From: a virus
Lineage: Duplodnaviria; Caudoviricetes
IMG/VR virus record: IMGVR_UViG_3300005611_000021
Location: 743 to 64,742 of that record
Strand: one strand, 5' to 3'
DNA length: 64,000 bases
Positions 3 through 35,890 of this stretch are shown one piece after another. The notes under the pieces were generated by a model. That model had not been told where the DNA came from and did no database searches. It was given only the letters and a program-made list of their open reading frames with translations. How positions within the stretch are numbered: position 1 is the stretch's first letter; each line of letters starts with the position of its first letter. The position numbers were made by a program, and so were the translations under genes.

Positions 3-470
3 AAAAGAACTCTTGCCGCAAGCGGTGTGGGGGCTGGCGTCGGGGCACTCGTGAGGGGAAAAAAAGGCGCGGCAATAGGAGCCGGGGGTGGAGCTTTGGC
101 GGGTCTTATTCCGCGATCTGTTTTAGAGAAAGCGGAACGGGCGACTGAAAAGCGACTTAAAGCTCGGGCAGCCCGAAAAGCCGCAACGCACAAGAAGCGA
201 GCAAAAGAGTGGGAGATGAGCTCACTCGAGACGATCTTTGAACTAGCATGTGGCCCCAATCGATACGAAGAGACGGAATCCCTTCTCAAGTCGCTCTCAG
301 ATGCAAAACTGCGTCAAATTGCGAAACGTCGAGAGAGAGAACTCGGGCCAGATACCAAAATCAGCGAGGAAGATGAAGCGCTCAACTCCCTTCGCTGGCG
401 GGCAAAAGATGAACTCCGGGAACGCAAGCGCATCCAGGTTCTCCGCAAACTTGCTGGCGTAAAGTCATGA
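3..470 (+). CDS. Basic Gly-zipper protein, 5' end truncated by window edge (putative internal head protein family)
   Basis: Frame is open from base 3 (KRTLAASGVGAGVG...); GAAIGAGGGALAG motif and K/R-rich tract; ATGA overlap with next gene. Confidence 0.7.
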   Translation, partial: KRTLAASGVGAGVGALVRGKKGAAIGAGGGALAGLIPRSVLEKAERATEKRLKARAARKAATHKKRAKEWEMSSLETIFELACGPNRYEETESLLKSLSDAKLRQIAKRRERELGPDTKISEEDEALNSLRWRAKDELRERKRIQVLRKLAGVKS

Positions 471-17860: not shown

Positions 17861-18010
17861 GGCATTTTTCCTTTTTTAGGTTTCGGTTAATGGGCGAATC
17901 GCCTGTGCCGCAGGTGACTCCCCCGTGAGAGTTGGAGACTTACGCTTGTTGTGCGTGTCTGTGTAGGAAGTTTTCCTTCGTACACCCAAGGTCTATCTTG
18001 GCCTGAATCC

Positions 18011-18019
18011 ATTATAGCA
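18011..18019 (-). promoter_or_regulatory. Extended -10 sigma70-type promoter for the leftward arm
   Basis: Minus strand reads TGcTATAAT in the divergent intergenic region, about 150 nt upstream of 17860. Confidence 0.55.
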
Positions 18020-18164
18020 TCCCCTGCAATCCCTTTCTATCACTGGCCTCGTCGCCTCTTTGAGTGGTCAAAATATAACTAATAAGCTTAACTAAGCATA
18101 AGTCAAATTCCTGAAAACTGCGCGTTTTGGCCTTGACTGGGAGAGGCCCGATTTATGTATAACT

Positions 18165-18788
18165 ATGTGTATGCCGGACACCAAATGGGCGAAAGAAATC
18201 CTCGAGCGTGCCGACCGCGGGGAAAAAATACCAAAAGCTGATCTTCAGAAGGCCAGTGACATCCTCCATGATGAACTGAGTGAGACGGCCGCCAAATCAA
18301 AGACCCTTCCCTCTAGGGCAAAGAACCAAACCGTCCTCGCGGAATGCCTTGGCCTGGAACGCAAAACGATTCAGCGCTGGAAGAAGGACAACCCGGATAC
18401 TTTCCCCAGGCCAAAGGCGAACGGGTCCTATGATGTGGATGCCGTCATCAAGTGGATGGATGCCAATGGGAAGTCAGCTCCGAATGTACCCGCTGGGGGT
18501 GAAGGTCTCGAGGAAGGCGAATCGATTGTTTCCCTCAAGATGCGCCAGCTCCGGCTGATGTGCGAGAAATTGGAGCATGAGCTCTCCGTAAAGAAAGGGG
18601 AATACACCGCGAATGTGGATGTTGAGCAATGGGTCGGGAATATGGTGTCAGAAGCCAAATCCATCCTGCTCCGGATTCCATCCAAGGCCGCTCCGATACT
18701 CGCGGGTATGTCTCCTGCTGAGATCGAGGACTACCTGAAGGAATGCGTCGACGAAGCCCTGGCGAAGCTTCATAATGCCAGCAGTTGA
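18165..18788 (+). CDS. terS: Terminase small subunit (lambda Nu1-like)
   Basis: HTH LAECLGLERKTIQRWKK, GSYDVDAVIKW, C-terminal coiled coil and LLRIPSKAAP region. Confidence 0.8.
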   Translation: MCMPDTKWAKEILERADRGEKIPKADLQKASDILHDELSETAAKSKTLPSRAKNQTVLAECLGLERKTIQRWKKDNPDTFPRPKANGSYDVDAVIKWMDANGKSAPNVPAGGEGLEEGESIVSLKMRQLRLMCEKLEHELSVKKGEYTANVDVEQWVGNMVSEAKSILLRIPSKAAPILAGMSPAEIEDYLKECVDEALAKLHNASS

Positions 18789-18948
18789 CACCCTTGTTCC
18801 GTTTATGGTTGAACTACCACCATTCGGAAACTCACCTTTTCCAGAAACCTGTGAATCCTGCAACACCCAGAAGCTTTGTGCAAGGAAAGCCAAGTGTCTC
18901 CTCAATGTTCGGCACGCCTTCTCGGAGTTGACACAACATCCAAAGAAT

Positions 18949-19395
18949 ATGAATCCACTCGCATCTCGTTTAATCGCCCTCGATGAGGGACTTGATGAAA
19001 TTATCGCTTCCCGTGCGGAACGCCTCCATGGGGATCTTGAATTTGCCCGTGGTGAAGAAGAAGGCCGCCGTAAGGGTGGAGGCTTTGCCGCTGGTGCGGG
19101 TACCGCAGCCGCCTTGCTTGCAGGTGGGAAATTTGCTCACTCTGCCGGAAAGCGTTACAAGAAAATCCGTAAACGCAACCCGGATGGTGGAAGAATGAAA
19201 GCTGCCGGACAAGCAACAAAGGATGTCGGAAGACTTTGGGGCCATAAAGTTGGATCTGCTACTCGAGCTGGTGTCCGTAAAGCAAAGGATCTTGCTGGAA
19301 AGCCAGGACAGATGGTGGATGACTTCAAGACACGGCGTGAATATCGTCAAGCATTCAAGAGAATACGCGACGAGAAGGTTTCCGCTTCTTCTTAA
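18949..19395 (+). CDS. Basic Gly-zipper protein with LEF leader (in-frame upstream ATG at 18805 also possible)
   Basis: MNPLASRLIALDEGLDE...DLEFARG; GFAAGAGTAAALLAGG. Confidence 0.75.
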   Translation: MNPLASRLIALDEGLDEIIASRAERLHGDLEFARGEEEGRRKGGGFAAGAGTAAALLAGGKFAHSAGKRYKKIRKRNPDGGRMKAAGQATKDVGRLWGHKVGSATRAGVRKAKDLAGKPGQMVDDFKTRREYRQAFKRIRDEKVSASS

Positions 19396-19418
19396 TCTAA
19401 TCTCAATCTTTCAAAACT

Positions 19419-19754
19419 ATGAATTCCGCAGAACGACTTATCTCTCTTGAGGCTCAACTTGATGAGGCTCTTGAATTTGAAAACTACGCTGAACCAAAGC
19501 GCCATCAAGGTGATGGTGGCCCACGAGCAGCAACCATTCTTGCCGGGGGTGCTGGACTTGCTGCCGCTGGTAAGGTTGGATATGATGTCCACAAGCGCTA
19601 CAAGAAGCTTCGTAAGGCATCTGCCGACAAACGTATTCCTGACTTAGGCGTTCGTGGGTCTCTTCAATCTGCGGGCAAACAGACTGCCAAAGCTTACAAA
19701 AAGGGTATTGGTCGTCGAGTTCGTGCCCTCAAGGGTGTTTTCACTGGTAAGTAA
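19419..19754 (+). CDS. Basic Gly-zipper protein with LEF leader
   Basis: MNSAERLISLEAQLDEALEFEN; ILAGGAGLAAAG. Confidence 0.8.
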   Translation: MNSAERLISLEAQLDEALEFENYAEPKRHQGDGGPRAATILAGGAGLAAAGKVGYDVHKRYKKLRKASADKRIPDLGVRGSLQSAGKQTAKAYKKGIGRRVRALKGVFTGK

Positions 19755-20368
19755 TGCCAACTGACCCCCAGGCTGATTCCCTGGAAAAGCGCCGTGACCG
19801 TTGGAAGCGTCGCCGGAAGCAGGGAGCCGCACAGTCTCGAGGCCGCAATAATGGTTTCGGGTCTGTGAAGTTTAATCCACAACCGACCAAAAGCGATGAG
19901 GGGATCACCTACCATAGCGAGCGGCATCAAAGGCTTGTGGAGCTCGGGGAGGTCCATGGCCGATCTTTAATACAGTTTGCAGGTGCAGCAAAGCTAAGGA
20001 AGATTCGCCGGAAGAATCCTCACCGAGAGAGACATCTCATTGAGCACCGAGAAAATCGGATTCGAAAAAACATCGGGAATAAATCGTATTATCAGGATAT
20101 AGCGAATGCTGATATTACCTCTCGAGTGACAACAGCAAACGGGGGCATAAACCCTGATGTGGCAATAGATAACCTTCTGAAAAGAAAAGCTGAAGCCGCA
20201 GCTTATGCTAAAAAGCATGGCCTTTCTGGTGGCGGGTCTCGTGGCCTTTCAAGTGATGATCGTGAAGCATGGCACAACAAGAATGTACTCATCCACTCAC
20301 GTACATCAAAATTTGGCCCAAACCCCCGTAATCACAAAAGAAAAGGCGTTCGGGGGCATCGCCAATAA
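19754..20368 (+). CDS. Basic protein (IQFA variant motif)
   Basis: RLVELGEVHGRSLIQFAG; K/R-rich. Confidence 0.7.
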   Translation: MPTDPQADSLEKRRDRWKRRRKQGAAQSRGRNNGFGSVKFNPQPTKSDEGITYHSERHQRLVELGEVHGRSLIQFAGAAKLRKIRRKNPHRERHLIEHRENRIRKNIGNKSYYQDIANADITSRVTTANGGINPDVAIDNLLKRKAEAAAYAKKHGLSGGGSRGLSSDDREAWHNKNVLIHSRTSKFGPNPRNHKRKGVRGHRQ

Positions 20369-20393
20369 CTTTAATGCAGGGCATCTTGCAATC

Positions 20394-20464
20394 GGAGAAT
20401 GAATACAGGGGAAGCTCACCGGCGCGACGCGCCGAGGGGCTTTTTCTGTTATAGGACCCCAACC
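20394..20464. repeat. Direct repeat copy 1 (71 nt; long hairpin plus duplicate of terL 3' end)
   Basis: About 5 differences from the copy at 20822-20891. Confidence 0.9.
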
Positions 20465-20794
20465 ATGAAAGATCGAATTATCGCCCTAGAGGAGAAGCTT
20501 GATGACGCTCTTGAGTTTAGCTCCGCGGCATGGACTCGTAAAGAAGGCAAGCGTGAATCCGGTGGATTGAACCAAAAAGGCGTAGAGAGTTATCGTAAGG
20601 AGAATCCAGGTAGCAAACTCAAAACCGCAGTCACACGAGATCCAAAAAAACTAAAAAAAGGTGGTAAGGCAGCAAAGCGAAGAGCATCATTTTGCGCCCG
20701 CATGAAGGGGATGAAGAAACGGAGAACTAGTGCAAAGACTGCCAATGATCCAAATTCAAGAATCAACAAGAGCCTACGGGCATGGAACTGCTAA
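20465..20794 (+). CDS. DUF6321-like basic protein with LEF leader
   Basis: MKDRIIALEEKLDDALEF then AAWTRKEG...RRASFCARM...SRINKSLRAWNC, recalled from T4-like cyanophage proteins. Confidence 0.75.
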   Translation: MKDRIIALEEKLDDALEFSSAAWTRKEGKRESGGLNQKGVESYRKENPGSKLKTAVTRDPKKLKKGGKAAKRRASFCARMKGMKKRRTSAKTANDPNSRINKSLRAWNC

Positions 20795-20821
20795 GTGACC
20801 CCGACCCTTTTGCTTTTAGCT

Positions 20822-20891
20822 GGAGAATGAATACAGGGAAGCCCACCGGCGCGTCGTGCCGAGGGGCTTTTCCTGTTATAGGACCCCAACC
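20822..20891. terminator. Direct repeat copy 2; likely bidirectional terminator at the terL 3' end
   Basis: acaggg-aagccc...gggctt-ttcctgt hairpin between convergent genes. Confidence 0.7.
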
Positions 20892-22651
20892 GTCCCGGTG
20901 ATGAGTGCCCCAGTAAGGATCATGCACTCACAGTCCCAGTAGTGATTTGGGCGGCGAGGTTTGTTCACCCAGATGTATTTCACGCGGCCATGGGTGTCTA
21001 CAATTTCCTCGCGGCGCTCTGCGTTCATCTGGTCGATGTAGTCAATGGTGACGTTCTCCGGGAGTTGCCAGGGCGGACCCAGACCTTGCCTGTATTCCGC
21101 GAGTAAATCCTTGATGGAAGGATTGGAAAATACGAATAAGCGAACCGGCCGAACCATGCCTTGCATAGAGGTTCCCAACGCTGGATCGATGAGGGTGTCT
21201 TTCCAGACTTGGCGGACTCCATCGACATTGAAGTATTCGAAGTCATCCCCCTTCATCGGCTTCCATGTATAGCCAGATTTCGTCACCTCATCATAAACTG
21301 AGGTCGCGTTGTATCCCGAGTCAATGATGACATCATCATCTTCAATCCCGAGAGTCGGCAAGAGTTCTCGCAGCTCGGAGAAGCCTGGGAGCCGTCCATA
21401 GTCCATAAGGCGACTGGCTCCATGTGTCCCGAATGCCCGACAAACATAGTAGAGGCAATCCTTCTGGACATCCACCCCGATAAACCGCCGCTTCTCTCCC
21501 TCCCAGTGATCCCGGAGTTTGAAGCTTCCCTTGCGATCATTTTCCCATTTGGCGGATTTGCCATACTTCAGGCGATCTTCCCAAGGCTGACCAAGGGATT
21601 CTGTCACAAAGGTCTTCAGGGGCTCAGGATCGCCCCATGAGAGAGCTTTCTTGGATGAGATGAATTCCTCAACCAAATCCCGCCATGCGACCCATGTGGG
21701 AAGGATCGCATTCCATGTGAAGGATTTTCTGTTGGATGGCGCCTCAAGGTTGGTCGGTACCCATTCGCCATCCATAGCGAGGCGGCGACGATCCCGTGGA
21801 TGGTCATAGATCTTGTGACCACATTTGGAGCATTGGATGTGAATGGTGGGGGCGAGTTTATCAAAGTCATAACGGCCGCCTGGTTTCGTATGATCGTTCG
21901 TCTCCCATTTCATGAAGAAGCCATCTTCTGCCCCCATTGAAAAATCCTCACTCCATAGAAGAGAATTTTCATTTCCGCACTGGGGGCAGGGGATCTTCCA
22001 TACCTGTTGATCGCCTTTGAGAAATTCCTGATGAACCGCATCATGCTCATCCCCTGGAGTTGAAATCACCACCTGCCGGGCGTTCCAGAAAGTTCGGCAC
22101 CGCTTGAGCACCATTGGTAGTGCTCCGGGAGGCCAGTTTCGGACCTCATCAAGTAGAAGCCAGCGCCGGGGCTTGGATTGGAGTTTCGAGGGTGCGTTGG
22201 ACCCGACAATCTCCAGGGTCATGTGTGGAAAAAAGATTTCCTTGGATTTGGCAAGCCCCCGGTCGTTGGGGATCATGTAGGCAACAGGCTCACACGCCCG
22301 GAGAGAGGGCATCATCCGTTCCTTGGCAAACTTGAGGGCTTCATCCTCATTGGCCGTCACCCACATGGCAGGCCCAGGATCTTCCGCAACCAACCAGTTG
22401 AGGAGTGCGAGCATGGTTTCCGTTTTGGCTGACTGAGCAGAACACATCACGGAGATGGAGCGAATCTTGTTGTCGGCGAAGGTCTCCATAAACTTCCGCA
22501 CCCAGGGAGAATTATCTGATCTCCATTTTCCGGGGAAAGGGGATACCGCAACCCGAAAGTGATCTTCTGCCCATTTCCAAGGTGGCCGCCGGTCTGCTGG
22601 CTTCCAACCAAGACTCGCTGCTCGACTCACGATGTTCATATCAGCTTCCAA
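20876..22651 (-). CDS. terL: Terminase large subunit (lambda GpA family)
   Basis: SPFPGKWRSDNSPW, Walker A SAQSAKTE, Walker B LLLDE, CPQC zinc motif, nuclease GVDVQ and NHYWDC. Confidence 0.95.
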   Translation of the reverse strand: MEADMNIVSRAASLGWKPADRRPPWKWAEDHFRVAVSPFPGKWRSDNSPWVRKFMETFADNKIRSISVMCSAQSAKTETMLALLNWLVAEDPGPAMWVTANEDEALKFAKERMMPSLRACEPVAYMIPNDRGLAKSKEIFFPHMTLEIVGSNAPSKLQSKPRRWLLLDEVRNWPPGALPMVLKRCRTFWNARQVVISTPGDEHDAVHQEFLKGDQQVWKIPCPQCGNENSLLWSEDFSMGAEDGFFMKWETNDHTKPGGRYDFDKLAPTIHIQCSKCGHKIYDHPRDRRRLAMDGEWVPTNLEAPSNRKSFTWNAILPTWVAWRDLVEEFISSKKALSWGDPEPLKTFVTESLGQPWEDRLKYGKSAKWENDRKGSFKLRDHWEGEKRRFIGVDVQKDCLYYVCRAFGTHGASRLMDYGRLPGFSELRELLPTLGIEDDDVIIDSGYNATSVYDEVTKSGYTWKPMKGDDFEYFNVDGVRQVWKDTLIDPALGTSMQGMVRPVRLFVFSNPSIKDLLAEYRQGLGPPWQLPENVTIDYIDQMNAERREEIVDTHGRVKYIWVNKPRRPNHYWDCECMILTGALITGTVGVL

Positions 22652-23577
22652 TTCAGACGTGATCCGGAATGATGGCCGTCCTTATACATGTTGCTCTTGT
22701 TCTTCCTGGTTCCCCCGAGCGTTAGGTGGTAGAATAGTTTGGCTTGGGGATTGATGCAATAATCTACCACATGCTTGAATGATGAACAGATGCAATGGAT
22801 CTCATCCGCACCTTCAAGGAGTTCCAGATAGTCGAAGATGTTGCCCGTTTTACTGAAATCCGGCTTGATGATCTCGAGACCTTCCCCCACATGGGTCCGG
22901 TTGATGTAATACCTTCGTTTGTCACACTCATGGAGGAATGCGTAGGGTTTTGTCGGTTTTGTCTGGTTTGTCAGATAGGCTTCCCGCACTCTGTCTCTTT
23001 TGAGGTGAAATTTCGTCCATCTCTGTTTCGGGTCCATTCCTACCAGCATGTAGAAGCATTCATCGAAAGAGAAATGTGGCCAATACCTTGTTACCGCACT
23101 GCCTCCTATGAGTACCCGTTCATTCTCCGGGAGTTCATTGAAGTAAAGGCGTGGTTTGGTGAATGCTTTGATTTTGATATCCGTATCCCGGTACATGAAG
23201 CGGATGGATTCCTCATACTTCGGGAGACACAAGAGAGTCGTGTCGTGTGTCTTGGCGAAATTTCTCACCAATGCGTTGCAGATGATGGAGTCTCCCATCC
23301 CCCAGTTGTGTAGAATCGTGATCTTTTCATCCGGGAGTCTCTTGTTCGGGTGTGGGATGGATTTAATCATCTTCCGGAATCTGGTCCATTCCGAGCCTCC
23401 CTTGTTCGATTCCATCTTGATTTGAGTCTGGATCACTGGATCGAGATTGTGCCAAATTTCCCTCAATGTCGGGATGAGTTGAGATTGTGCCCCCGTATGC
23501 TTTTGAAGTGCATATCTCATTGCAAAAAGGTAGGGGGCGCTTTTGGTGTAACTAAGTTTCATCTCTCGCGTGCGCAT
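22636..23577 (-). CDS. Glycosyltransferase-like protein (GT-B, GMGD motif)
   Basis: HNWGMGDSIICNALVR; GADEIHCICSSF. Confidence 0.6.
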   Translation of the reverse strand: MRTREMKLSYTKSAPYLFAMRYALQKHTGAQSQLIPTLREIWHNLDPVIQTQIKMESNKGGSEWTRFRKMIKSIPHPNKRLPDEKITILHNWGMGDSIICNALVRNFAKTHDTTLLCLPKYEESIRFMYRDTDIKIKAFTKPRLYFNELPENERVLIGGSAVTRYWPHFSFDECFYMLVGMDPKQRWTKFHLKRDRVREAYLTNQTKPTKPYAFLHECDKRRYYINRTHVGEGLEIIKPDFSKTGNIFDYLELLEGADEIHCICSSFKHVVDYCINPQAKLFYHLTLGGTRKNKSNMYKDGHHSGSRLNWKLI

Positions 23578-23715
23578 GTTCCCCTAAAGGGGAATTGGAT
23601 TTTTGTTTTATTTGATTTTTCTGGTCATTTTTGTTGGTTCAATGGTATGGAAGGGGTGCTAACGCCCTTCCCTTCCAACCACCAAATACGATTTGGACTT
23701 GTCCCAAGGCATGAC

Positions 23716-24213
23716 CTAAAGAGATTCGTAGATATCAAGGATGGGTTTGAGTGATTTTTTGAGAGTTCGACGTTCATCTGGACTCATCTTCTCGATGGGA
23801 GTTTTTGAAATCCCCTTCTTCCAATACTGATCCATCTTCATCGCCATCATCGGAAGGGATTCCATTCGCTTGTCGGTGAGTTTCGCTTGGTAGGTGGATT
23901 TCTTTCCATCATGGTCGATCCCGAGGCATTGACGGATGGAGGTGAACTTTCCGGAATCCAGATCAATTTCCCCGGATTCACATTTCCTGAACAGGGCGAT
24001 GTATTGGTATGCGGTTTTTCTCTTAAAGTTGAGGTTTTCCTCAATCCACTTCGGGAAGCTCTCCACTTCCGCTTGTACTTGTGCTAGGATCTCTCCTGCT
24101 TTTACAAAATACCGAAGGCTTCCCTTCATGGTCTGGACCCCTTCAGCATGGGCGTTCTTGATTTCAGTAGCTCGATTATCACCTCCGAGCGAGAGGGCAT
24201 TTTCAAACGTCAT
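23716..24213 (-). CDS. DUF3102-like protein
   Basis: AGEILAQVQ...FPKWIEENLNFKRKTAYQYIALF. Confidence 0.65.
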   Translation of the reverse strand: MTFENALSLGGDNRATEIKNAHAEGVQTMKGSLRYFVKAGEILAQVQAEVESFPKWIEENLNFKRKTAYQYIALFRKCESGEIDLDSGKFTSIRQCLGIDHDGKKSTYQAKLTDKRMESLPMMAMKMDQYWKKGISKTPIEKMSPDERRTLKKSLKPILDIYESL

Positions 24214-24619
24214 GGTGTCTCCTTAGTGCGGATTTTCGGTAGTTCTCACAAGCTTCCAGGGATTTTTGACCTGAACAGATAGGTAAGTCGAATTCCTTCT
24301 GGAAACGCTTGATCGATTTGGAAAGAGCTTGTTTGGTTACACCATGATCTTCGGCGATCTCTTTTTGGGTCTTGCCATGGAATAAAGGCAAACCGAATGC
24401 CTGGACGATGGCAGCGAGCTTGAGCCGGTAGTTGTGCGAGTCATAGATCAGGGCAATTATCTTCGTCAGGGCATCTTGTGTCTCCTGTCGTGCGAGCTCT
24501 TTGACAAGCTCTTGGATTTCCATTGGTAAATCAGAAATCTCCTCTATTGACCTTTCATTGGTTTCCTCTACGGAATCATAGTCGAAACCAACACTTCCCT
24601 CTTCTAACGGTGTTGACAT
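24203..24619 (-). CDS. HTH protein (sigma70 region 4-like)
   Basis: KTQKEIAEDHGVTKQALSKSIKRF. Confidence 0.7.
   Translation of the reverse strand: MSTPLEEGSVGFDYDSVEETNERSIEEISDLPMEIQELVKELARQETQDALTKIIALIYDSHNYRLKLAAIVQAFGLPLFHGKTQKEIAEDHGVTKQALSKSIKRFQKEFDLPICSGQKSLEACENYRKSALRRHHDV
24612..24618 (+). promoter_or_regulatory. GTTGACA motif
   Basis: 22 nt before ATG 24634; overlaps the start codon of the divergent HTH gene. Confidence 0.55.
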
Positions 24620-24633
24620 GATTATTTGGTGTT

Positions 24634-24873
24634 ATGAGCGTAAACGATTGGAGAATTGCTTATCGCATGTATTCAAGTCAAGAGCTTGACGAGGAACGTG
24701 CAAGGCTAAAAGAGGAGGCAAAGAATGCGTTGCTGTCTCAGTCAGCGGGGTCTCGGAGTTACACAAGGTCGGTCACACAGATCAACCAACAACTCCGAGC
24801 GCTTGCGGAAGTAGTTGACGAAAACAATGGTGTATCCAACATGGCTTCCACATACGTTGATTTCTCACAATGA
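24634..24873 (+). CDS. Head-to-tail joining protein (gpW-like)
   Basis: 79 aa directly before portal; SQSAGSRSYTR hairpin flanked by helices. Confidence 0.7.
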   Translation: MSVNDWRIAYRMYSSQELDEERARLKEEAKNALLSQSAGSRSYTRSVTQINQQLRALAEVVDENNGVSNMASTYVDFSQ

Positions 24874-26504
24874 CTGAACCGAAAACACCAAGAGCGTCCT
24901 GGCTGGACAAAACCATTTCCTTCATAAACCCGGAAGCGGGACTCAAACGGAAGTATTACAAAGATCAACTCGAGTTTGCTTATGATGCGGCAAACTTAGG
25001 AAGGGCAGCGGCAACACTCGGGGGGACGGCTTCCCTTGCTGCTCCGGAATCCCTTGCCAACCAACGGGATCGCATCAAGATGATGTGGGAAGCCCGGAAT
25101 CTGGTGAACAACTACTCATTTTTCAAATCTATCCTTCTGAAGGAAGCGATGTATGTCTGTGGCCAGATTCGGTACCAGTCTCAAACCGGGAATCCCGATA
25201 TTGACCGTCAAATTGAAAGCTACTTTTCGGAATGGAGCAAGAGGTGTGATGTGACAGGCCGCTACCCTTTCCGGCATCTGGTTCAACTCGCTCACATGGG
25301 GATGCGGAGAGATGGTGATGCGGGTTTTGCATTGGTGACTCAAGGGAAGGATGTTTTTCTTCAGGCAATCGAGGCGGATCGCTTAGGAAACCCCCATGAG
25401 GGCGGGAAAAATGATGATACCTACATCGGGGGAATTACCATCGATAATCTTGGCCGCCCCCATCAGTACCGGATTTTCAAGCGGACCCTCCACGGACAAT
25501 ACACGAATCCAAGGGATGTCCCTAAGTCAAATTTCATCCATTACATAGACCCGCTGCGAGCGGATCAATACCGAGGGATCACAGCCTTTGAGACTGCGAT
25601 TCCTCATGCTAAGGACTTGTATGAGCTTCTGCAAATGGAAAAACTCGCGGTCAAATGGGCTTCCGCTCATGCGGGTGTCATTACCAAAGATGACCATGGT
25701 AAGGACAAGTGGAGCTCAACCCCGGCGGCTGCCCCTCCACAACCAGGAGATCCGCTTCAGAAGGGCAACCACTTGAATCTTGAGGCCGTGCACGCCGGGA
25801 AGCTCATTCGGCTTCGGCCTGGTGAGAGCATGGAGGCATTCAGCACGAGTTCCAGGCCATCAGCGACTTTCAATGGTTTCATCACAACGCTCGTCCGGGA
25901 GATGGCCAATGGCCTCAACCTTCCGTTTGCGTTTGTGTGGGATATGAGTGCATTTGGGGGTGCGACTGCCCGGCTTGAGGTGCAGGCCGCCCAGCGTGCT
26001 TTCATGAGGCATCAACAACTTCTTCAGGAGCAAGTCCTTGATCCAGTGAAGAACATTGTGATTTCTCGGGCTATCGCTTTCGGGGATCTACCGCCCAATG
26101 CCAATTACCGCAAAGGGCGCTGGCAGTTCAATTCCCAGATCACCGCTGATCTTGGTCATGAAACCCAGGCCAACCTTTCTCTTCTCGAGGCGGGTCTCAA
26201 GACTCGTGGAACTATCATCGGTGAAAGTGGCCGTGATTTCGAAGAAGAAATTGAAAAGATTGCCAAAGAAATCGCCTACATGGAGGAAATGAGCAGGAAA
26301 TACAAGATCCCACTCGCTCTCATCGCTAAGACTCTTGAAGGTGGCTCCAAGGCTATTGTGGATTATCGTGAAGCCCTCGCAAGTGAAGCGGAAGGTCAGG
26401 AGCCTTCAGATCATGATGCAGAGATCGCAGCGAAACAAACCATGGCACAAACGGCCGCTCAACTTCAGGCTCAGAATCAATTTGCACCCGCTCAACCCGA
26501 ATGA
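24870..26504 (+). CDS. Portal protein (lambda family)
   Basis: LQAIEADRL, GITIDNLGRPHQYRI, DQYRGIT, L.PGE, ARLE motifs; 544 aa. Confidence 0.95.
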   Translation: MTEPKTPRASWLDKTISFINPEAGLKRKYYKDQLEFAYDAANLGRAAATLGGTASLAAPESLANQRDRIKMMWEARNLVNNYSFFKSILLKEAMYVCGQIRYQSQTGNPDIDRQIESYFSEWSKRCDVTGRYPFRHLVQLAHMGMRRDGDAGFALVTQGKDVFLQAIEADRLGNPHEGGKNDDTYIGGITIDNLGRPHQYRIFKRTLHGQYTNPRDVPKSNFIHYIDPLRADQYRGITAFETAIPHAKDLYELLQMEKLAVKWASAHAGVITKDDHGKDKWSSTPAAAPPQPGDPLQKGNHLNLEAVHAGKLIRLRPGESMEAFSTSSRPSATFNGFITTLVREMANGLNLPFAFVWDMSAFGGATARLEVQAAQRAFMRHQQLLQEQVLDPVKNIVISRAIAFGDLPPNANYRKGRWQFNSQITADLGHETQANLSLLEAGLKTRGTIIGESGRDFEEEIEKIAKEIAYMEEMSRKYKIPLALIAKTLEGGSKAIVDYREALASEAEGQEPSDHDAEIAAKQTMAQTAAQLQAQNQFAPAQPE

Positions 26505-28291
26505 AAACCAAACAACCAGAAGAACGTAAGAGAGTAAATCCCCTACTTCCTGCCGCCGGCCTCGCGGTCGCAGCGGCTTTAGCAGGCCGATCCCCTTTAG
26601 GGAAGCGCATGGCTGTTCGTCGGGTTGCCAAACGCAAGCATGGCTCCATGATCGGAGACCGGGAATCTTCCGTTGTTCATAAGCAGAAGAAACAGAATTA
26701 CGATAAAGCTTATGCTCAGGAGCAGAAGACCCTTCGCACCCCTGTTCAGGAAGAGACATTGAAGGAAGCTGCGAAGTTCCGTGGCAAGCGGATTCCAAAG
26801 AGGCAACGTGCTGAAGGTGGTCCTCGTCGTAAGTCAGGTGAGCGAATCCAGGTCGGGAATGACAGTGAGGAAGTCTATGATGCGGTAAGAAAAGCTCCTA
26901 ATGACAGGGCGGCCAAGCGAATCCTGGCATCTCCTCAAATGAAGGATGCTCGCCAACAGGCAGGCCGTGAAGCTCAGGATAAGATTTCCGCATCTCAGGA
27001 GAAGAACAACCGGGAAGTGCAGCAAAAAATCGCTGAACAAGCAAACATTGATGCTCAGGAGCATGACATCAATAGGAAGAAGCTCGCTGAATACTATGAG
27101 AAGAACAAGGACAATCCGAAAATCAAGGCAAGAGTGCAGGGGCCGTTGAATGCGAATGAGCGCGCTGATGAGGCCGCTAATGCCGCTGTGAGGGGTAAGG
27201 TTGCTTTGGCTGGAGCCAAGGTGAAGCGAGCCAACACCTATAAGCATCAACAGAATTTAGCGAATCGGAAGATCAAGGCTGAGTTGAAGAAGCTAGGCAT
27301 TTCCATTGATTCTCCTGAAGGTCAAGCCTACGTTAATGGACCACAGGGCAAGGCGATCCGGGCTCAGTATAACAAGAAGGCCAAAACGACCCTCAAAACT
27401 CAATCCAAAAACAAGAAGGCCGCCAAAAAAAAGGATGAGGTCAAGCGGATTGAGGAAGCCAGGAGTCGTGTCCCAAAATCAGAGCAACTTGCGGCCGCTA
27501 AGAGAAGATATGTCACTTTGGCGAACAAAAGGAATGCAGATCCGGATAAAGTGAGTAAGGCCCGATCCGCCTATGCGAATCTTCGCGCTTCCATCCTTCA
27601 GGAGTTGGAGAAAAATGTTGGAAATCATTCTGCTGAAGATGCCGCTCTCTGGTACCAGCTCAGGGGGAAGAAGTTTGGTGGCAGGACTTCCATGCCAGGA
27701 GGGACACCAGAGCAAACCTTTCGAGCCAGGATGCGTGAGATTATGCTCGAAGAAGGTGAAAAGGATGGCCGTCGACGTATCCTTACTGGTGCAGGTCTTG
27801 GAGCGATTGGGGCGGCTGCTGCGACAGATCGCCTCTACCGGGATCTTGATGCTCGTCGCACCCACAATAAGCCTCGAGCCACAAAAGGCGTTGATCCTGA
27901 TGAATTTATCCGCCCCTCCCGTGTCGATCCTGGCATCGAGGAATATGAAGGGATGAATGCGGCTATCGAGAAAGGCCGAAAGGCAGCGGGCAAGAAGACC
28001 AAGAAGGAATTCAAAGGTCGTGGAAAGGCTGAAGCCATCGAAAGAAGTATGAATGATGCTGAAAAGAGCATCCGGGAATCCCACCCGAAGACAGCTCGAC
28101 GCACTGGGGCATGGGCGCGAGGAGAGAAGCCTCTCCTGGGGAAGGATGCCCCAACTGGGTATCGGAGTCGCTTTCTCAAGAAGGCGGGTGCTCGAGCCGC
28201 TGCGTTGACTGGTGGAGGGGTAATAGCTGGAGCGGTTTACCATGGCATTAAGAAAGCAACAGAAAATGCGAAAAAGAGGAAGCAATCTTGA
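26501..28291 (+). CDS. Large basic Gly-zipper protein
   Basis: 596 aa K/R/A-rich; three hydrophobic Gly/Ala helices. Confidence 0.75.
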   Translation: MKTKQPEERKRVNPLLPAAGLAVAAALAGRSPLGKRMAVRRVAKRKHGSMIGDRESSVVHKQKKQNYDKAYAQEQKTLRTPVQEETLKEAAKFRGKRIPKRQRAEGGPRRKSGERIQVGNDSEEVYDAVRKAPNDRAAKRILASPQMKDARQQAGREAQDKISASQEKNNREVQQKIAEQANIDAQEHDINRKKLAEYYEKNKDNPKIKARVQGPLNANERADEAANAAVRGKVALAGAKVKRANTYKHQQNLANRKIKAELKKLGISIDSPEGQAYVNGPQGKAIRAQYNKKAKTTLKTQSKNKKAAKKKDEVKRIEEARSRVPKSEQLAAAKRRYVTLANKRNADPDKVSKARSAYANLRASILQELEKNVGNHSAEDAALWYQLRGKKFGGRTSMPGGTPEQTFRARMREIMLEEGEKDGRRRILTGAGLGAIGAAAATDRLYRDLDARRTHNKPRATKGVDPDEFIRPSRVDPGIEEYEGMNAAIEKGRKAAGKKTKKEFKGRGKAEAIERSMNDAEKSIRESHPKTARRTGAWARGEKPLLGKDAPTGYRSRFLKKAGARAAALTGGGVIAGAVYHGIKKATENAKKRKQS

Positions 28292-28940
28292 ATTTGAAGA
28301 TGGGGTCTCCATTAAGGAGGCTCGCGGGATGCGCCGCCAAGCCCAAAGAGCAGTCAAGCATGGCCGCTTTGCCGGTGAGGTAGTCAAGGATCTTGATGAG
28401 CTCCGTACCGGGGAACGTCGCAACAAACGGAAGAAGCGTTTCTGGGAGAAGAAATCCGTCCAGGATGCCGCGGCCGCCCATCTTTTGACCATTGGTGCGA
28501 TTGGTGCGTATGCAGGTCGCAAGCATATCCATGGTGCGGGAAAGAAGATTGCCGAACATCTACTTGAAGATCCCACCCTCAAGCCAACTCTTCAGAGACG
28601 TGGTGATGGCTGGTATATGACCAAGCCAACCTCTTCTTCTGTTCGTGTCCATACCACAGGCCGCAAGCGGGTTCGCCGTGGCAAGTATTGGCACGAGAGG
28701 AAGGATAACCGGGATAAGATGCTCGGAGCCGCTACCCTTGCGGCCGTCACAGGTATCCCCGCTGCCTATTTGCTCGGAAAGCGAAAAGGGATCAAGGTTC
28801 GCAAATCTAAGCAAAAGCCGATTCACACCACAAAGACAATTCACGCTCATGGAACTGATGCAAAAGGTGTTAGTGACACTTTAACCGAAACCCCGATTAA
28901 GCCTTATGTCGTTAAAAAAACCGAAGAAGCAAGAAAGTAA
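28242..28940 (+). CDS. Basic Gly-zipper protein with LEF motif (start may be 28266)
   Basis: RKRGSNLEFEDG; TIGAIGAYAG; MLGAATLAAVTG. Confidence 0.7.
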   Translation: MALRKQQKMRKRGSNLEFEDGVSIKEARGMRRQAQRAVKHGRFAGEVVKDLDELRTGERRNKRKKRFWEKKSVQDAAAAHLLTIGAIGAYAGRKHIHGAGKKIAEHLLEDPTLKPTLQRRGDGWYMTKPTSSSVRVHTTGRKRVRRGKYWHERKDNRDKMLGAATLAAVTGIPAAYLLGKRKGIKVRKSKQKPIHTTKTIHAHGTDAKGVSDTLTETPIKPYVVKKTEEARK

Positions 28941-29006
28941 GCCTAAGCAGGATTCCGCGAAATCCGGAAAGCCTTTCCTTGGTGTATTCAAAATCAAATT
29001 CGGATC

Positions 29007-29645
29007 ATGAGAGTATGGAAATCCAATGTTGAGCCGCCTTTAGGTTGGGAAGTGAATCCTGATCTCTCCAGGCGTTATGGCCGAACGATCATTACTGAAA
29101 CCATTGAGCAATCCAAGATCCAGAAAGTCCGGAAGCGTAAGGGGCTTATGGCTTTGTTCGAGGAGCGGAAGCAGGAATCTCCGGAAGATCGTCGACGGAA
29201 AGCCTTGGTTGCCGCCGGGGTCGCAGCGGGAACGATCGGGTCAGGGGCAGGAATGTGGAAGATTGGCCATGACCGTGCTGTTTTGGATGACTATGAGCGA
29301 AGGCTAAAGCGTCATGATAAGAATCTCACTGATACGGAAAATCGCCTTCGTTCTGAGCGTGAAGGGATGGAGGCATCCAAATCCCGCTCTCAAGTGCAAA
29401 AGGACTTCAAGGGAAACACAGACGCCCTTCCTCCAACTATGCGGCCTGGTGGTGATAAGCGAAAGCAATACAGGGAGGAACGCCTCGGTAAGGTCATGGG
29501 GGTTGGCCACATTAAGGATCGTGGACGCCGGAAAGCTGTCCGGGGAAAATGGAAGAATGGCAAGTTTATCCCTCAAAAGAGCATCCTTCAATACATCCTT
29601 CCAGACAAGCGAATCCCCAAGGTGTTGTCAGGGCTACACCGTTGA
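29007..29645 (+). CDS. Basic Gly-zipper protein
   Basis: GLMALFEE; LVAAGVAAGTIGSGAG. Confidence 0.7.
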   Translation: MRVWKSNVEPPLGWEVNPDLSRRYGRTIITETIEQSKIQKVRKRKGLMALFEERKQESPEDRRRKALVAAGVAAGTIGSGAGMWKIGHDRAVLDDYERRLKRHDKNLTDTENRLRSEREGMEASKSRSQVQKDFKGNTDALPPTMRPGGDKRKQYREERLGKVMGVGHIKDRGRRKAVRGKWKNGKFIPQKSILQYILPDKRIPKVLSGLHR

Positions 29646-29647
29646 CT
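29641..29647 (+). promoter_or_regulatory. GTTGACT motif
   Basis: 21 nt before ATG 29662. Confidence 0.55.
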
Positions 29648-29661
29648 TTTAATCCATTGCC

Positions 29662-31503
29662 ATGAATCACAACAATGTCATTTCTTTGCCTGGGTCCGGT
29701 GTTATTGAGGCCGGTGATGCCCTTGTCATCAATTCCGCGGGAAAAGCTTCTCGCCCTGGCAATGATGATTTTAAGGAAAAGCATATTGGGGTCGCGTTGC
29801 AGGATTTTGATAGCTCAGAGTCTTCCATGGCGGTTGATATCCAACTTTTTTGCCATGCGTCCGTTGCGAATGTGAATCTTGATGGCCTCATTGAGCCAGG
29901 AGATGCCGTGGCCGTGGAAAGTGAGAGTCACATCCTGGTTCCTCTTGGTGATCCTCTCCCTGACAATCAGCGTCAGGTTGGAGTCTCTTTGACGAGTGTG
30001 ACGGCCGCCGGGGTGCATTCCATTGATCTTTTGATCCAAGAACGTGTTGGCCTTGGTGTCTATGTAAGTGGAGTTCCTATCCAGCAGTTGTCCGTACCGC
30101 CTGGAATTCCTGATACTGGTACGATGGGAATGGTCGGTAGCCCCGCGGGAACCCCAACTTTCAACACCGTTCCACGTCCTCTACCTGCTGACAATTCAGG
30201 GAATCCGGGGTCTATGACCCTTGAGGGATCACACCCAACTGGCACCATTAGTCCTGTTGTGATTCAGATACCAGGCGACAATTCAGGAAATCCAGGGTCC
30301 ATGACTCTTGAAGGGTCACATCCAACCCACTCCGCTCTCAATAGTGTCACTCCCATACCTACTGCTACCACATGGACAGGGGAAAGTGCGGATGATCGCT
30401 TTGGTTGGGATGTCGGTATGGATGAACAAGGTTATACGGTTGCGATTGGAGCCAGTTACCGCAGTAGTCAGGATGGAGAGGTTTATACCCATTACTTCGA
30501 TGGTGGATCTTGGCAGGCTGGTGACACCATGACTGGGCCAACTGATGGAGAGCTTGGTCGCTCATTGGCCGTTAGTAAGGATGGTTCTCACATGGTCATC
30601 GCTGGCCCGCAGTTTAATAATCGTGGCCATGCTGAAGTCTGGGAGCAGACATCTCCCGGTACATGGTCCCTGAAATACACTTTTACCGCTGTCCAACTTC
30701 CCAATGTGGGAGGTCAGTTTAATGTGAATCGGAATGTGGCGATTTCTGCTGATGGGTCTCGAGTCGTGATCGGGGAACCGATGGCGAATATCGGCCTCTC
30801 AGACAATGGGCAGGTGCGAGTATTTGAGTGGAATGGAACAACCGCTTATGCTCAGATTGGACAGACAATCGTAGGTGCGGCCTCTAAGGATTCTTTTGGT
30901 TATGCCGTGGATATCATTGATGACGGTAGCAAGATTGTTGTAGGTGCGCCTCAACGAACTGCTGATGATCCATTCGGGTACATCCATCTCTATGAATACG
31001 ATGGGGTGGATACCTGGACCCTTGATGACTCTATCGCTGCAACCTCTAATTATGAGTTTGGTTACAGTGTATCAATTTCAGGTGATGGAACCTGGCTCGC
31101 GGTAGGAAATCCTCTTCGCCTTTCCAATAATGGTGGATTTCAGATCTACAAGTATGTCGGAGGTTCTTTTGATGTTGCAAATGTGACGACTTGGGGCGGG
31201 GCAGGGCGAACCGGTGAATCTCTCTCCATTAGCACGAATGGCGATAAGTTGATCGTTGGAAAACCTGAATCCAGTGCAGGTGCAGCCGGGGTTTATTCTC
31301 GCTCGGGAGATACCTGGTCCAAAGTTTCTGATGTGAGTACACCAACAGGCTTGGATGCGGGGGATGGTCATTTTGGCTACCGGGTCGCGATCTCCGGTGA
31401 TGGGAATGTTGCGATTGTCGGTGGATACACCTGGGATTCTAATGGGGCGGCTTGGTTGCTGGTTCTTGATGGAAGTGACCCGATCGTTCCAATCCCTGTG
31501 TAG
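29662..31503 (+). CDS. Capsid-cement (DUF2190-like) domain fused to a 7-bladed FG-GAP-like beta-propeller
   Basis: MNHNNVISLP N-terminus shared with 31977 and 33466; seven FGxxVA(I/M)SxDGxxxxxGxP-type blades. Confidence 0.75.
   Translation: MNHNNVISLPGSGVIEAGDALVINSAGKASRPGNDDFKEKHIGVALQDFDSSESSMAVDIQLFCHASVANVNLDGLIEPGDAVAVESESHILVPLGDPLPDNQRQVGVSLTSVTAAGVHSIDLLIQERVGLGVYVSGVPIQQLSVPPGIPDTGTMGMVGSPAGTPTFNTVPRPLPADNSGNPGSMTLEGSHPTGTISPVVIQIPGDNSGNPGSMTLEGSHPTHSALNSVTPIPTATTWTGESADDRFGWDVGMDEQGYTVAIGASYRSSQDGEVYTHYFDGGSWQAGDTMTGPTDGELGRSLAVSKDGSHMVIAGPQFNNRGHAEVWEQTSPGTWSLKYTFTAVQLPNVGGQFNVNRNVAISADGSRVVIGEPMANIGLSDNGQVRVFEWNGTTAYAQIGQTIVGAASKDSFGYAVDIIDDGSKIVVGAPQRTADDPFGYIHLYEYDGVDTWTLDDSIAATSNYEFGYSVSISGDGTWLAVGNPLRLSNNGGFQIYKYVGGSFDVANVTTWGGAGRTGESLSISTNGDKLIVGKPESSAGAAGVYSRSGDTWSKVSDVSTPTGLDAGDGHFGYRVAISGDGNVAIVGGYTWDSNGAAWLLVLDGSDPIVPIPV
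30190..30327 (+). repeat. Two copies of 17-aa DNSGNPGSMTLEGSHPT (87-nt period)
   Basis: Identical peptide, DNA differs at wobble positions (30190-30240, 30277-30327). Confidence 0.9.
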
Positions 31504-32347: not shown

Positions 32348-33433
32348 ATGAAAGATTTGATTTTTTTCCACGCCATTGATGGCCGCATTGATGAAGCTAA
32401 TGGCATTATTTCTGGGGTTTCCCTTATTACTATGGGGAATGCTCGCGGTCACAACCTTGAGGTTGATGAGACCACTCTCAATCAACTCAAGCTTTCTCTT
32501 GATAATACCGCTGAACCAGGGATCAAGGCGAAACTGAATCACCGAACAGGGGTGGAGGCTGTCTTTGGTTATATCAAAAACTTTCATGTCGTTGGTAATA
32601 AGTTGACGGGAGACCTTCACATGCTGAAGGCTCACAAGGACTACAATCAAACCATGGAGCAAATTAAAACCCTACCGAAGCAAATTGGCCTCTCTGTGGC
32701 GTTCCAAGGTGACAAGGAACCCGGTGCGGATGGGAAAGTTTACGCTCGGTGCAAAAGAATTGTATCCGTTGATTTGGTTGCAGATCCCGCTGCCAACCCA
32801 GACGGTATGTTTGAAGTGAAAGTTGACAAAGGAACGCAGAATATGGAACTCGAAGAACAACTCAAGGCTATCATAGATGGCCAACAGAAAATCAACGACC
32901 GCCTTGATGGTCTTGAGCAGTTTAATGCAGACATCTCAGATGCCATCGAGTTGAATCTTGGTGAGCTTGAAGAAGATGACTACGAAGACGACGACTACGG
33001 AGACGTTGAGTATGAAGACGACGACGACTACGAAGACGACGACTATGAGGACGTTGAGTATTCTGCCATCGATGACATGCTGACTTACCTCGAAGCGAAA
33101 GCTGATGGGGCCATGCAAGCTGAAGAAGATGCCCGTTTTGATGCGGCCTTCGATGTGATTGAGGACAAGGTTGCTCAACTCGCCATCCAAAATGAAGAAC
33201 TTCAACTTCAAAATGAAGCTCTCCAGGAAGCTCTCGAGATGGATGCCATTGAGCCTCTTGCACCTTCCTCTGAAGCTTACCTTTTTTCTTCCGGTGCGGA
33301 AGACGGAACTTTTGAGTTTGCGGTTCAGACCGCGACTGAACATGCTGAAACCCCACAGGATGCAATTCGTACGGCCGTGACCAACAATCCTGTTGCTCAC
33401 CGCGAATGGCTCCAGCGTCAGGGCATTCTTTAA
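32348..33433 (+). CDS. Prohead protease (HK97/T4 gp21-like) fused to acidic scaffold
   Basis: Candidate catalytic KLNH, GLS, SVDLVADPA; acidic coiled-coil C-terminal half. Confidence 0.85.
   Translation: MKDLIFFHAIDGRIDEANGIISGVSLITMGNARGHNLEVDETTLNQLKLSLDNTAEPGIKAKLNHRTGVEAVFGYIKNFHVVGNKLTGDLHMLKAHKDYNQTMEQIKTLPKQIGLSVAFQGDKEPGADGKVYARCKRIVSVDLVADPAANPDGMFEVKVDKGTQNMELEEQLKAIIDGQQKINDRLDGLEQFNADISDAIELNLGELEEDDYEDDDYGDVEYEDDDDYEDDDYEDVEYSAIDDMLTYLEAKADGAMQAEEDARFDAAFDVIEDKVAQLAIQNEELQLQNEALQEALEMDAIEPLAPSSEAYLFSSGAEDGTFEFAVQTATEHAETPQDAIRTAVTNNPVAHREWLQRQGIL
32822..32828 (+). promoter_or_regulatory. GTTGACA motif inside the protease gene
   Basis: 21 nt before the in-frame ATG at 32843. Confidence 0.55.
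32843..33433 (+). CDS. Nested scaffold protein (internal in-frame start)
   Basis: MELEEQLKAII...; begins right after the protease domain, as lambda Nu3 does within C. Confidence 0.6.
   Translation: MELEEQLKAIIDGQQKINDRLDGLEQFNADISDAIELNLGELEEDDYEDDDYGDVEYEDDDDYEDDDYEDVEYSAIDDMLTYLEAKADGAMQAEEDARFDAAFDVIEDKVAQLAIQNEELQLQNEALQEALEMDAIEPLAPSSEAYLFSSGAEDGTFEFAVQTATEHAETPQDAIRTAVTNNPVAHREWLQRQGIL
32972..33061 (+). repeat. Imperfect tandem duplication encoding (E)DDYEDDDY(G/E)DVEY x2
   Basis: Visible in both DNA and protein. Confidence 0.8.
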
Positions 33434-34934: not shown

Positions 34935-34941
34935 GTTGACT
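34935..34941 (+). promoter_or_regulatory. GTTGACT motif
   Basis: 20 nt before ATG 34955, immediately after the terminator. Confidence 0.55.
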
Positions 34942-35457: not shown

Positions 35458-35888
35458 GTGGTCCATATCAAGACGTTAAGCGGGAACTCGAGCAGGTGTT
35501 TTGCAATTTGCTCAAAGAGAAGATAGGGGTTGAGTTTAAGCCATATAAGGCAGATGAGGAACTTGACACTCCCTATGGGGTTGTCGCCTGTTCATCCTGT
35601 CGCCCTATTGCCGGGGGCGCCTCTCCTCGGGGATGGAGAGCCGAGGTGAAGGTCGCCTATGTTTCTCACATCGATGAAGTGAACTCCGGGGTACATTCCC
35701 AGAAGGTTGCGGAAATTGAGGATGCTATTAGCCTGGTTCCTCAAGCGGCCGTGGAGGATTATCAACTCCAAGAAAATCACATCAAGGTTGCTGGACTCTT
35801 TATCAAGGAGCATCGGGATCAGAGTGAATCCCAGTCTTTCGGAGATGTCTTCGATGTGGATGTCGGGGTGAATGAATGCAGGGGTTGA
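35454..35888 (+). CDS. Tail completion/terminator-like protein
   Basis: 144 aa; position and alpha/beta pattern. Confidence 0.55.
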   Translation: MSGPYQDVKRELEQVFCNLLKEKIGVEFKPYKADEELDTPYGVVACSSCRPIAGGASPRGWRAEVKVAYVSHIDEVNSGVHSQKVAEIEDAISLVPQAAVEDYQLQENHIKVAGLFIKEHRDQSESQSFGDVFDVDVGVNECRG

Positions 35889-35890
35889 CA
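35884..35890 (+). promoter_or_regulatory. GTTGACA motif
   Basis: 21 nt before ATG 35905. Confidence 0.55.

Follow-up and report, generated by a model that had tools for sequence, protein, structure and literature searches.

A conserved leader peptide on basic proteins in the head block of an uncultivated phage: a candidate capsid-targeting propeptide with a putative Φ-E-F processing site

Organisation of the locus

The DNA analysed herein, hereafter the window, is a 64,000-nt stretch (positions 743 to 64,742) of the IMG/VR record IMGVR_UViG_3300005611_000021, and represents nearly all of the 64,742-bp contig of an uncultivated tailed phage. It encodes a set of very basic proteins, several of which begin with a common leader peptide that ends in Φ-E-F (Φ being a hydrophobic residue), and it is this leader, together with similar sites in other head proteins, that is the subject of this report. 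The region in question is the packaging and head block (Table 1), in which four small basic open reading frames (ORFs) of the + strand lie between the genes for the small and large terminase subunits (terS and terL). Three more (26501, 28242 and 29007; genes are named by their first position) are found downstream of the portal gene, followed by cement-like proteins and then by gene 32348, which encodes a putative prohead protease fused to a scaffold. A close relative of the window is absent from 50,697 deposited phage records, and a megablast search with positions 18000-30000 returned zero matches amongst deposited phages.

Table 1. Coordinates of the basic ORFs, the packaging and head genes and associated features (positions in the window unless another source is given)
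Feature	Position	Strand	Remarks
180-aa basic protein with HExxH (H-E-L-I-H)	genome nt 83-625, outside the window (locus L027)		full leader MDIRERIIALEERLDVVIEL
183-aa basic protein, 3′ part in the window	1-470	+	starts at genome nt 661 with MSDLLEF; minimal N-terminal LLEF; two Gly/Ala-rich segments
402-aa basic protein	467-1675	+	internal PIEF (890-898), 17 aa before a Gly/Ala segment; TEF (1493-1501)
Small terminase subunit	18165-18788	+	start of the late/head block; phrog_57, E 1.6e-26
Cys-rich stretch	18775-18948	+	58 aa, in frame with leader protein A
Leader protein A, 148 aa	18949-19395	+	long-form leader (18949-19044), LEF (19036-19044); Gly/Ala segment; K/R tail
Leader protein B, 111 aa	19419-19754	+	short-form leader (19419-19478), LEF (19470-19478); Gly/Ala segment at residues 37-51; K/R tail
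204-aa basic protein	19754-20368	+	degenerate internal leader RLVELGE...LIQF (19931-19978), IQF (19970-19978)
Direct repeats of ~71 nt	20394-20464; 20822-20891		93-100 % identical
Leader fused directly to DUF6321	20465-20794	+	leader (20465-20518), LEF (20510-20518); SSAAW...WNC
Large terminase subunit	20876-22651	-	tblastn to annotated terminases
Portal, lambda family	24870-26504	+	Pfam PF05136, 153 bits, E 1.5e-44, above the gathering score; LEF (24969-24977)
596-aa basic protein, net +70	26501-28291	+	three Gly/Ala segments; without Φ-E-F
232-aa basic protein	28242-28940	+	N-terminal NLEFE, LEF (28287-28295); two Gly/Ala segments
212-aa basic protein	29007-29645	+	one Gly/Ala segment; without a supported motif
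Putative prohead protease-scaffold fusion	32348-33433	+	protease about residues 1-160; FEF-A (33311-33319) before the C-terminal helices
284-aa basic protein	56820-57674	+	C-terminal Gly/Ala segment; RERLISF not supported as leader
Predicted lipoprotein-like protein	57671-58174		signal-like N-terminus ending in Cys
GTTGAC[A/T] copies	18927-18933; 24612-24618; 29641-29647; 34935-34941; 35884-35890; 56797-56803; genome nt ~640		the last before the MSDLLEF start
Module chains in other phages	L026 1693-3282 (S-P4); L047 1190-2743 (S-SCSM1); L025 9266-12528 (marine virus AG-345-E15)		small Cys-containing basic modules including DUF6321

Eleven ORFs of the genome, totalling 2780 aa, are very basic (K+R fraction of at least about 0.19, pI > 10). 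Uncharged Gly/Ala-rich segments of 12-24 aa occur in nine of these, most of the segments spanning 12-16 aa with a mean hydropathy of 1.1-2.0. A preliminary description of this DNA had termed the proteins Gly-zippers, which holds as a statement of composition but not of Pfam membership: the Gly-zipper models (PF13441, PF13488) gave only sub-threshold matches, with Gly-zipper_YMGG at 20.2 bits against a cut-off of 28.9 for the protein starting at genome nt 661. No PHROG or Pfam family was matched by the ORFs at 18775, 19419, 19754, 26501, 28242 and 29007, and Pfam, PHROGs and tblastn gave no sequence relation of the basic proteins to known internal-protein families. For the HExxH protein, likewise, no Pfam family was matched, and a DUF4157-like reading of it was rejected on the same grounds; its motif suggests a small metallopeptidase-like cargo. 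Within five contigs of relatives, only one partial match to an orthologue of the 467 protein was found.

A leader shared by unrelated proteins

The genes at 18949, 19419 and 20465 each begin R-[L/I]-I-[A/S]-L-[D/E]-x-x-L-D…[L]-E-F, and a fourth copy is located at genome nt 83, outside the window. The overall consensus, R-I-I-x-L-D/E-x-x-L-D…Φ-E-F, exists in short and long forms. In order to avoid circularity, a leader hidden Markov model (HMM) was built from the sequences of relatives only, and all 1218 six-frame ORFs of the genome were searched with it. Exactly four matches were returned (window positions 18964, 20471 and 19431, and genome nt 95), with E-values from 9e-6 to 1.3e-3 (18949, 9e-6; 20465, 3e-5; 19419, 6e-4), the fifth-best match reaching only 0.86. 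The degenerate copy within 19754 scored 9.7 on its own, and its apparent counterpart in the related locus L016 carries a full leader with similar sequence right after it, as judged by eye.

All strings quoted in the preliminary description are present where it had placed them, and the shared leader that it proposed is borne out by the HMM for 18949, 19419 and 20465. Its further candidates RERLISF, LMALFEE, IMLEEG and IFELA gave no profile match, and LMALFEE shows no conservation in orthologues when inspected by eye. The number of cargo proteins bearing the helical leader, put at about ten, is reduced to four, alongside one degenerate copy, three proteins with a bare Φ-E-F and three with nothing. 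Nor do these proteins form a single family as had been supposed: an all-against-all BLAST of the 11 links them almost only via the leader and via leader proteins A and B (18949/19419), which are paralogous over their whole length.

Amongst 24 related IMG/VR loci collected through the portal (47-70 % identity), 21 distinct leaders were found, all 1-9 residues after the Met and on the portal strand. The leader is conserved in phages whose portals are 62-70 % identical, and leader-like helices recur at 47 %; the genes concerned are placed, in every lineage examined, either in the terS-terL interval or in that from portal to protease. A profile search of 1.84 billion representatives retrieved about 33 small proteins with the leader at residues 1-7. 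Two giant proteins (6093 and 5271 aa) from the same search matched through their Gly-rich part only, without Φ-E-F, and were set aside as low-complexity. Searches with single proteins gave no relatives for the 19419 protein alone and only the query itself for the 18949 protein, and ESM Atlas look-alikes of 19419 (scores ≤ 0.80) were uninformative.

The leader has the form of a net-acidic amphipathic helix of 18-32 aa, with a charge of -2 to -4 on bodies of +16 to +22. Its two length classes have only the common start and the Φ-E-F end in common, and in an alignment of 13 sequences R, L, D and F are invariant, with L and E nearly so. Copies within the genome use different codons at 2-6 of their 7-10 identical residues, and hence it is the peptide that is conserved and not the DNA. 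It stands as an N-terminal module on unrelated bodies, namely Gly/Ala-plus-K/R proteins, a DUF6321 domain, the HExxH protein and further types in the relatives, so that its portability between unrelated cargo is supported in silico. The leader and its site motif exist and are conserved; no description of either was found in the literature searched, in the phage records or in Pfam, PHROGs and NCBIfam, and the leader has been seen only in uncultivated phages and in genome assemblies (probable prophages) of Verrucomicrobiota and the Planctomycetota–Verrucomicrobiota–Chlamydiota (PVC) group.

With regard to the start of leader protein A, its ORF is open from ATG 18775, and GTTGACA is found 15 nt before ATG 18949. 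In the form GTTGAC[A/T], this sequence precedes the ATG start codons of several late genes, that at 18949 included, by 13-16 nt; 15 of its 16 copies are on the + strand, with the total at chance level (16 vs 14.7), and its position supports 18949 as the real start. The in-frame stretch upstream (PFGN..C..C......C....C) is, in relatives, the N-terminus of a separate basic protein of 224-276 aa, in which it is followed by I-K-E-F-A (L003) or N-I-E-L-A (L001).

Φ-E-F sites beyond the leader

The short motif itself is concentrated in the basic proteins. [LI]EF occurs six times in the 11 proteins against 0.42 expected, a count reached by none of 2000 shuffles, although three of the six are related leaders and are not independent. 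In the other 68 ORFs it is at chance level (7 vs 6.3). The same confinement is seen for [LIM]EF in relatives (6 vs 0.3 in G002; 3 vs 0.33 in G004). SNLEFE of 28242, also singled out earlier, is backed by orthologues: it aligns with an internal site, [E/T]-F-[E/D]-[E/D], of longer proteins, which is kept in most of them, two having ELDD. A second site, comprising an acidic patch, then [L/M/I]-E-F, then [M/G/Q/A], is present in seven of eight aligned leader proteins of 200-240 aa. One protein of 689 aa contains tandem LAARIENLIEF sites, and a unit of leader helix, 10-17 aa and Gly/Ala segment is recurrent, with three such modules in succession in P0079.

Five of the approximately 29 close members of the family have another residue in place of the Glu of the site, and such replacements are frequent in distant members (T-K-F, V-L-F, I-Q-F, I-S-F), the substitutes seen being A, N, M, H, Q, K, S and L; Phe or Leu is retained better than Glu in distant relatives. 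As Phe/Leu outlasts Glu, and as DUF6321 starts right after the Phe, cleavage after the Phe of Φ-x-F appears at least as likely as cleavage after Glu, for which A-L-E before F would fit an A-X-E rule. A hydrophobic P3 with a free P2 is also the layout of gp21 sites. Herpesvirus assemblin sites have this layout as well.

The DUF6321 cassette

The body of the 20465 protein is a DUF6321 domain (PF19846; 65.4 bits against a cut-off of 28.5, E 7.3e-18), with matches to eight PHROG families (E down to 4e-41). An unrelated marine virus encodes a domain sharing 78 % identity with it, embedded mid-protein without such a leader in front, and so a widespread domain here stands behind the clade's own leader. 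The leader-DUF6321 gene forms a one-gene cassette flanked by the ~71-nt direct repeats. Each repeat contains a GC-rich hairpin and then a T run, and the second copy overlaps the 3′ end of terL.

A total of 503 phage records contain DUF6321; most belong to T4-like cyanophages and pelagiphages, in which the domain is a module of large basic proteins annotated as 'structural' or 'virion'. That of S-SCSM1, a phage whose virion proteome has been measured by mass spectrometry (PMC9602691), is annotated 'virion protein'; no paper mentioning DUF6321 was found in a literature search. The cyanomyovirus proteins are chains of small Cys-containing basic modules (Table 1) with acidic, K-E-E-[V/T]-x-x-E-like linkers between them, and these linkers could be gp21-type processing sites.

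In relatives of the present phage, the domain is bordered by Φ-E-F-type sites. LLEFG immediately precedes SAAW, the start of DUF6321, in G002. The more distant viral contig L048 encodes, immediately downstream of its portal, a protein of 2230 aa that contains DUF6321 (E 4e-22) with P-I-E-L directly before ASAAW, P-L-I-Q-F a few residues past WNC and another P-I-Q-F 40 aa further on. In L058, a Verrucomicrobiaceae assembly contig, the domain of a 1019-aa post-portal protein lies between I-I-S-F and V-I-L-F. These giant basic proteins follow the portal directly (L048 3294-9986; L058 5480-8539), that of L048 adding an SNF2-family helicase (PF00176, PF00271), and they look like packaged 'polyvalent' proteins. 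A by-eye guess that they begin with a ParB-like domain received no support from Pfam.

The protease-scaffold and the portal

Gene 32348 matches no Pfam (Peptidase_S77/S78), NCBIfam or PHROG model, its protease-domain profile gave no PDB sequence match and its 50 homologues are all unnamed; its relation to prohead proteases is visible by fold only. A first AlphaFold 2 model from six sequences (predicted local distance difference test, pLDDT, 59.8) gave nothing significant in Foldseek, which was resolved by a later, deeper alignment of 33 sequences, from which the N-terminal domain was modelled at pLDDT 76-88. The best Foldseek match of this model is T4 gp21 (5jbl; E 5.5e-4, probability 1.0, TM-score 0.56 over 139 columns), with herpesvirus proteases next. 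VIA-align, a search independent of Foldseek, was run on an earlier model of lower confidence and returned four of 48,161 chains at Z ≥ 2, these being gp21 (Z 5.3), two herpesvirus proteases and one unrelated chain. Residues H35, H65 and S116 are invariant. By its predicted structure, the N-terminal domain is thus a prohead-protease fold closest to T4 gp21.

The protease domain is followed by a helix with LEQF (residues 189-192), an acidic tract, a long helix and a small C-terminal helical bundle, and on account of these helices and this tract we interpret 32348 as a protease-scaffold fusion. The tract, at residues ~205-240, is an extreme run of D, E and Y (EEDDYEDDDYGDVEYEDDDDYEDDDYEDVEY) and is acidic in all 33 homologues; it could pair with the basic bodies of the cargo. 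EF-type sites recur across the 33 sequences both after the protease domain (L-E-x-F, or [G/A]-E-F in a far clade) and near the C-terminus (F-E-F-[S/A] or V-V-E-F-S-A). The portal N-terminus reads DQLEF-AYDAA, with a clade form of [L/Y/F]-E-[F/M]-x-Y-D-A-A, and those of two distant relatives (L048, L058) read LLEFSEY and FIEFSFD. Conservation in relatives thereby upholds the earlier observation that the motif is also present in the scaffold and at the portal N-terminus.

Distribution and probable host

Homologues of the protease-scaffold (loci L049-L068) were located in assemblies of Verrucomicrobiota, Planctomycetota and Lentisphaerota, together with two weaker matches in Bacteroidota. One assembly is that of an isolate, Verrucomicrobium sp. 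BvORR034, and amongst the contigs are some of 1.9 and 5.2 Mb, for which reason the regions are probably prophages and the host of the present phage probably belongs to the Verrucomicrobiota/PVC group. Upstream of the protease gene in these assemblies are helices that end in Φ-x-F/L and are followed by Gly/Ala segments.

Neighbouring genes

Downstream of the protease-scaffold, the gene at 33847 is the probable major capsid gene, on the basis of its position and its conservation in relatives; its product matched no family model. The start MNHNNVISLP is common to three proteins (29662, 31977 and 33466), of which 33466 has a Pfam cement match below threshold and 29662 has FG-GAP repeats. At least three shared N-terminal peptides are therefore found in this phage: MNHNNVISLP, M(S)IP[VI][RK] and the leader ending in LEF. 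After the basic 56820 protein lies a predicted lipoprotein-like protein with a Gly-rich segment (GAGGGAAVGSLGGPGTAAAGG).

A candidate capsid-targeting propeptide

The reading that we favour, at a probability of about 0.5, is that the leader is a portable, T4-like capsid-targeting propeptide, and that Φ-E-F, or more generally Φ-x-F/L, is the processing or polyprotein site of the phage's own gp21-like prohead protease. Very basic cargo (Gly/Ala-rich K/R proteins, the DUF6321 domain and the HExxH protein) would be made late, either carrying the net-acidic helix or sitting within a larger basic protein, and would enter the procapsid together with the strongly acidic protease-scaffold, whose acidic tract could plausibly attract the basic bodies by charge. 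The protease would then cut at Φ-E-F in the cargo, in the scaffold and perhaps also in the portal, giving small basic products that would remain with the DNA and exit with it at infection. Packaging, cleavage and the scissile bond are what we infer by analogy with known systems, as is any part played in condensing or ejecting the DNA; the pore or membrane function suggested in the preliminary description is a conjecture.

Several points weigh against this. Two post-portal basic proteins, 26501 and 29007, lack the motif; tblastn of the leader and basic proteins against the 50,697 phage records gave no match and no homologue in a cultured phage; and in distant regions of prophage-like character the leader profile fell short of significance (E 0.4-0.5). 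As the scaffold is acidic like the leader, it is a doubtful partner for the latter, and a strict T4-like rule of Glu at P1 misfits some of the sites. The portal EF, being directly before the conserved YDAA, may be structural, and BLAST did not align this region with the cleaved leader of lambda. Finally, the leader helix and the Gly/Ala helix could form a single, uncleaved two-helix unit.

A broader version of the propeptide reading, which we put forward tentatively and regard as possible rather than probable, is a clade-wide cargo code. Here, a gp21-like protease with a Φ-x-Phe/Leu site would free small, highly basic modules (Gly/Ala-helix peptides and DUF6321) both from precursors tagged with the leader and from the giant polyproteins that follow the portal, and the leader would be a transferable loading tag able to capture foreign domains, as in the DUF6321 cassette.

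Should the leader not be cleaved, it might serve as a docking or structural helix, forming with the Gly/Ala helix a repeated hairpin that anchors to the portal, the capsid interior or a membrane, with Φ-E-F as a contact motif whose Phe occupies a pocket. The recurrence of the helix-Gly/Ala unit, three times in P0079, would fit such a hairpin, as would the better retention of Phe/Leu than of Glu in distant relatives; however, two kinds of cargo behind the leader, DUF6321 and the HExxH protein, have no Gly/Ala segment, Φ-x-F sites on either side of DUF6321 and in the scaffold have no hairpin after them, and the two leader lengths agree only at the start and the EF end. We consider this unlikely.

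Somewhat less likely again is that the proteins are not packaged at all but are late, membrane-active or nucleoid-binding agents of lysis, exclusion or host takeover, in which a toxic, cationic body is masked by the acidic pro-region until this is cleaved off by a protease of host or phage origin. Cationic peptides with pro-regions have the same charge layout as that seen here, an acidic leader on a very basic body with hydrophobic Gly/Ala segments. Yet the genes lie in the packaging and head block in all lineages, and in the portal-protease interval in distant ones; relatives of the DUF6321 protein are annotated as virion proteins; and most Gly/Ala segments are, at 12-16 aa, short for a membrane span. 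As for a host enzyme, a Prp protease of staphylococci reportedly performs L27-type N-terminal cleavage after Phe in phage 80alpha. The Prp family (PF04327) was found in none of four Verrucomicrobiota assemblies with related prophage-like regions, the completeness of these genomes not being reported, whilst the control matched Bacillus, Thermotoga and Lactococcus; host cleavage after Phe is disfavoured for this reason.

That the pattern reflects merely recent paralogues plus chance LEF tripeptides is highly improbable, for although 18949 and 19419 are full-length paralogues and LEF alone is expected several times per proteome, as the non-basic ORFs demonstrate, the profile test, the codon differences between copies, the attachment of the leader to non-homologous bodies and its conservation in independent lineages exclude both chance and simple paralogy, with enrichment only in basic proteins in several genomes.

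Relation to known systems

In T4, a 10-aa capsid-targeting sequence is present on unrelated internal proteins, and is cut by gp21 after L/I-X-E (PMC9026906; PMC3012670). The likeness to IPI, IPII, IPIII and Alt lies in a short N-terminal peptide on unrelated, mostly basic cargo, in a hydrophobic residue followed by Glu, and in gp21 as the closest solved fold. The leader described here differs in being 18-32 aa long and helical, with an added, conserved Phe and a Glu that is not invariant. The setting differs too, with lambda-like head genes (Phage_portal_2, cement protein), a protease fused to the scaffold, a 65-kb genome and, probably, a Verrucomicrobiota host.

The gp245 protease of SPN3US cuts after A-X-E, removes propeptides of 20-24 aa, and cleaves the portal and its own C-terminal propeptide (PMC10052503). 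As in the phiKZ, SPN3US and 201phi2-1 group (gp175/gp245, after (A/S/G)-X-E), in which N-terminal propeptides with several sites each occur and portal and protease are processed, the short-form leaders here end in A-L-E-F, conforming to A-X-E. In contrast, those phages are jumbo myoviruses whose propeptides lack a common helix, and in many sites of the present clade the place of the A is taken by L, I, N, D or S, whilst Phe is conserved after the Glu. The portal is of the same family as lambda gpB, for which the record gives a 22-aa leader ending L-R-E-Y-A before G-Y, resembling Q-L-E-F-A-Y; however, lambda gpC is an S49 enzyme and not assemblin-like, and the portal N-termini are unaligned by BLAST.

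Head-internal proteins that leave with the DNA to form a trans-envelope conduit are known in P22 (gp7, gp16 and gp20) and T7 (gp14-16) (PMC8402733), and the preliminary description had proposed a role of this kind for the Gly/Ala helices. Those proteins differ in having no common cleavable leader. Where DUF6321 is concerned, that of cyanophages and pelagiphages is a C-terminal or internal module of a basic protein, whilst here it is alone behind a clade-specific leader; in the clade's distant relatives it is embedded in giant post-portal proteins with Φ-x-F/L on its flanks. Encapsulin cargo-loading peptides also bring diverse cargo into an HK97-fold shell by means of a short portable peptide, but theirs are usually C-terminal, uncleaved and of other sequences. 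The principle is therefore known from T4 and the phiKZ group, and it is the sequences of the leader and its site that appear to be new.

Implications

Capsid-targeting propeptides have been established experimentally only in T4-like and phiKZ-like myoviruses. If the propeptide reading is correct, the loading of cargo by a cleavable tag would be much more widespread, reaching lambda-like head modules, and the specificity of an uncharacterised branch of assemblin-fold proteases would be defined. The function of DUF6321, a domain abundant amongst marine cyanophages and pelagiphages, would also become approachable for the first time, as would that of many basic Gly/Ala-rich proteins encoded beside portals. 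For phages of the Verrucomicrobiota, whose hosts are poorly studied, the leader would constitute a capsid-loading tag.

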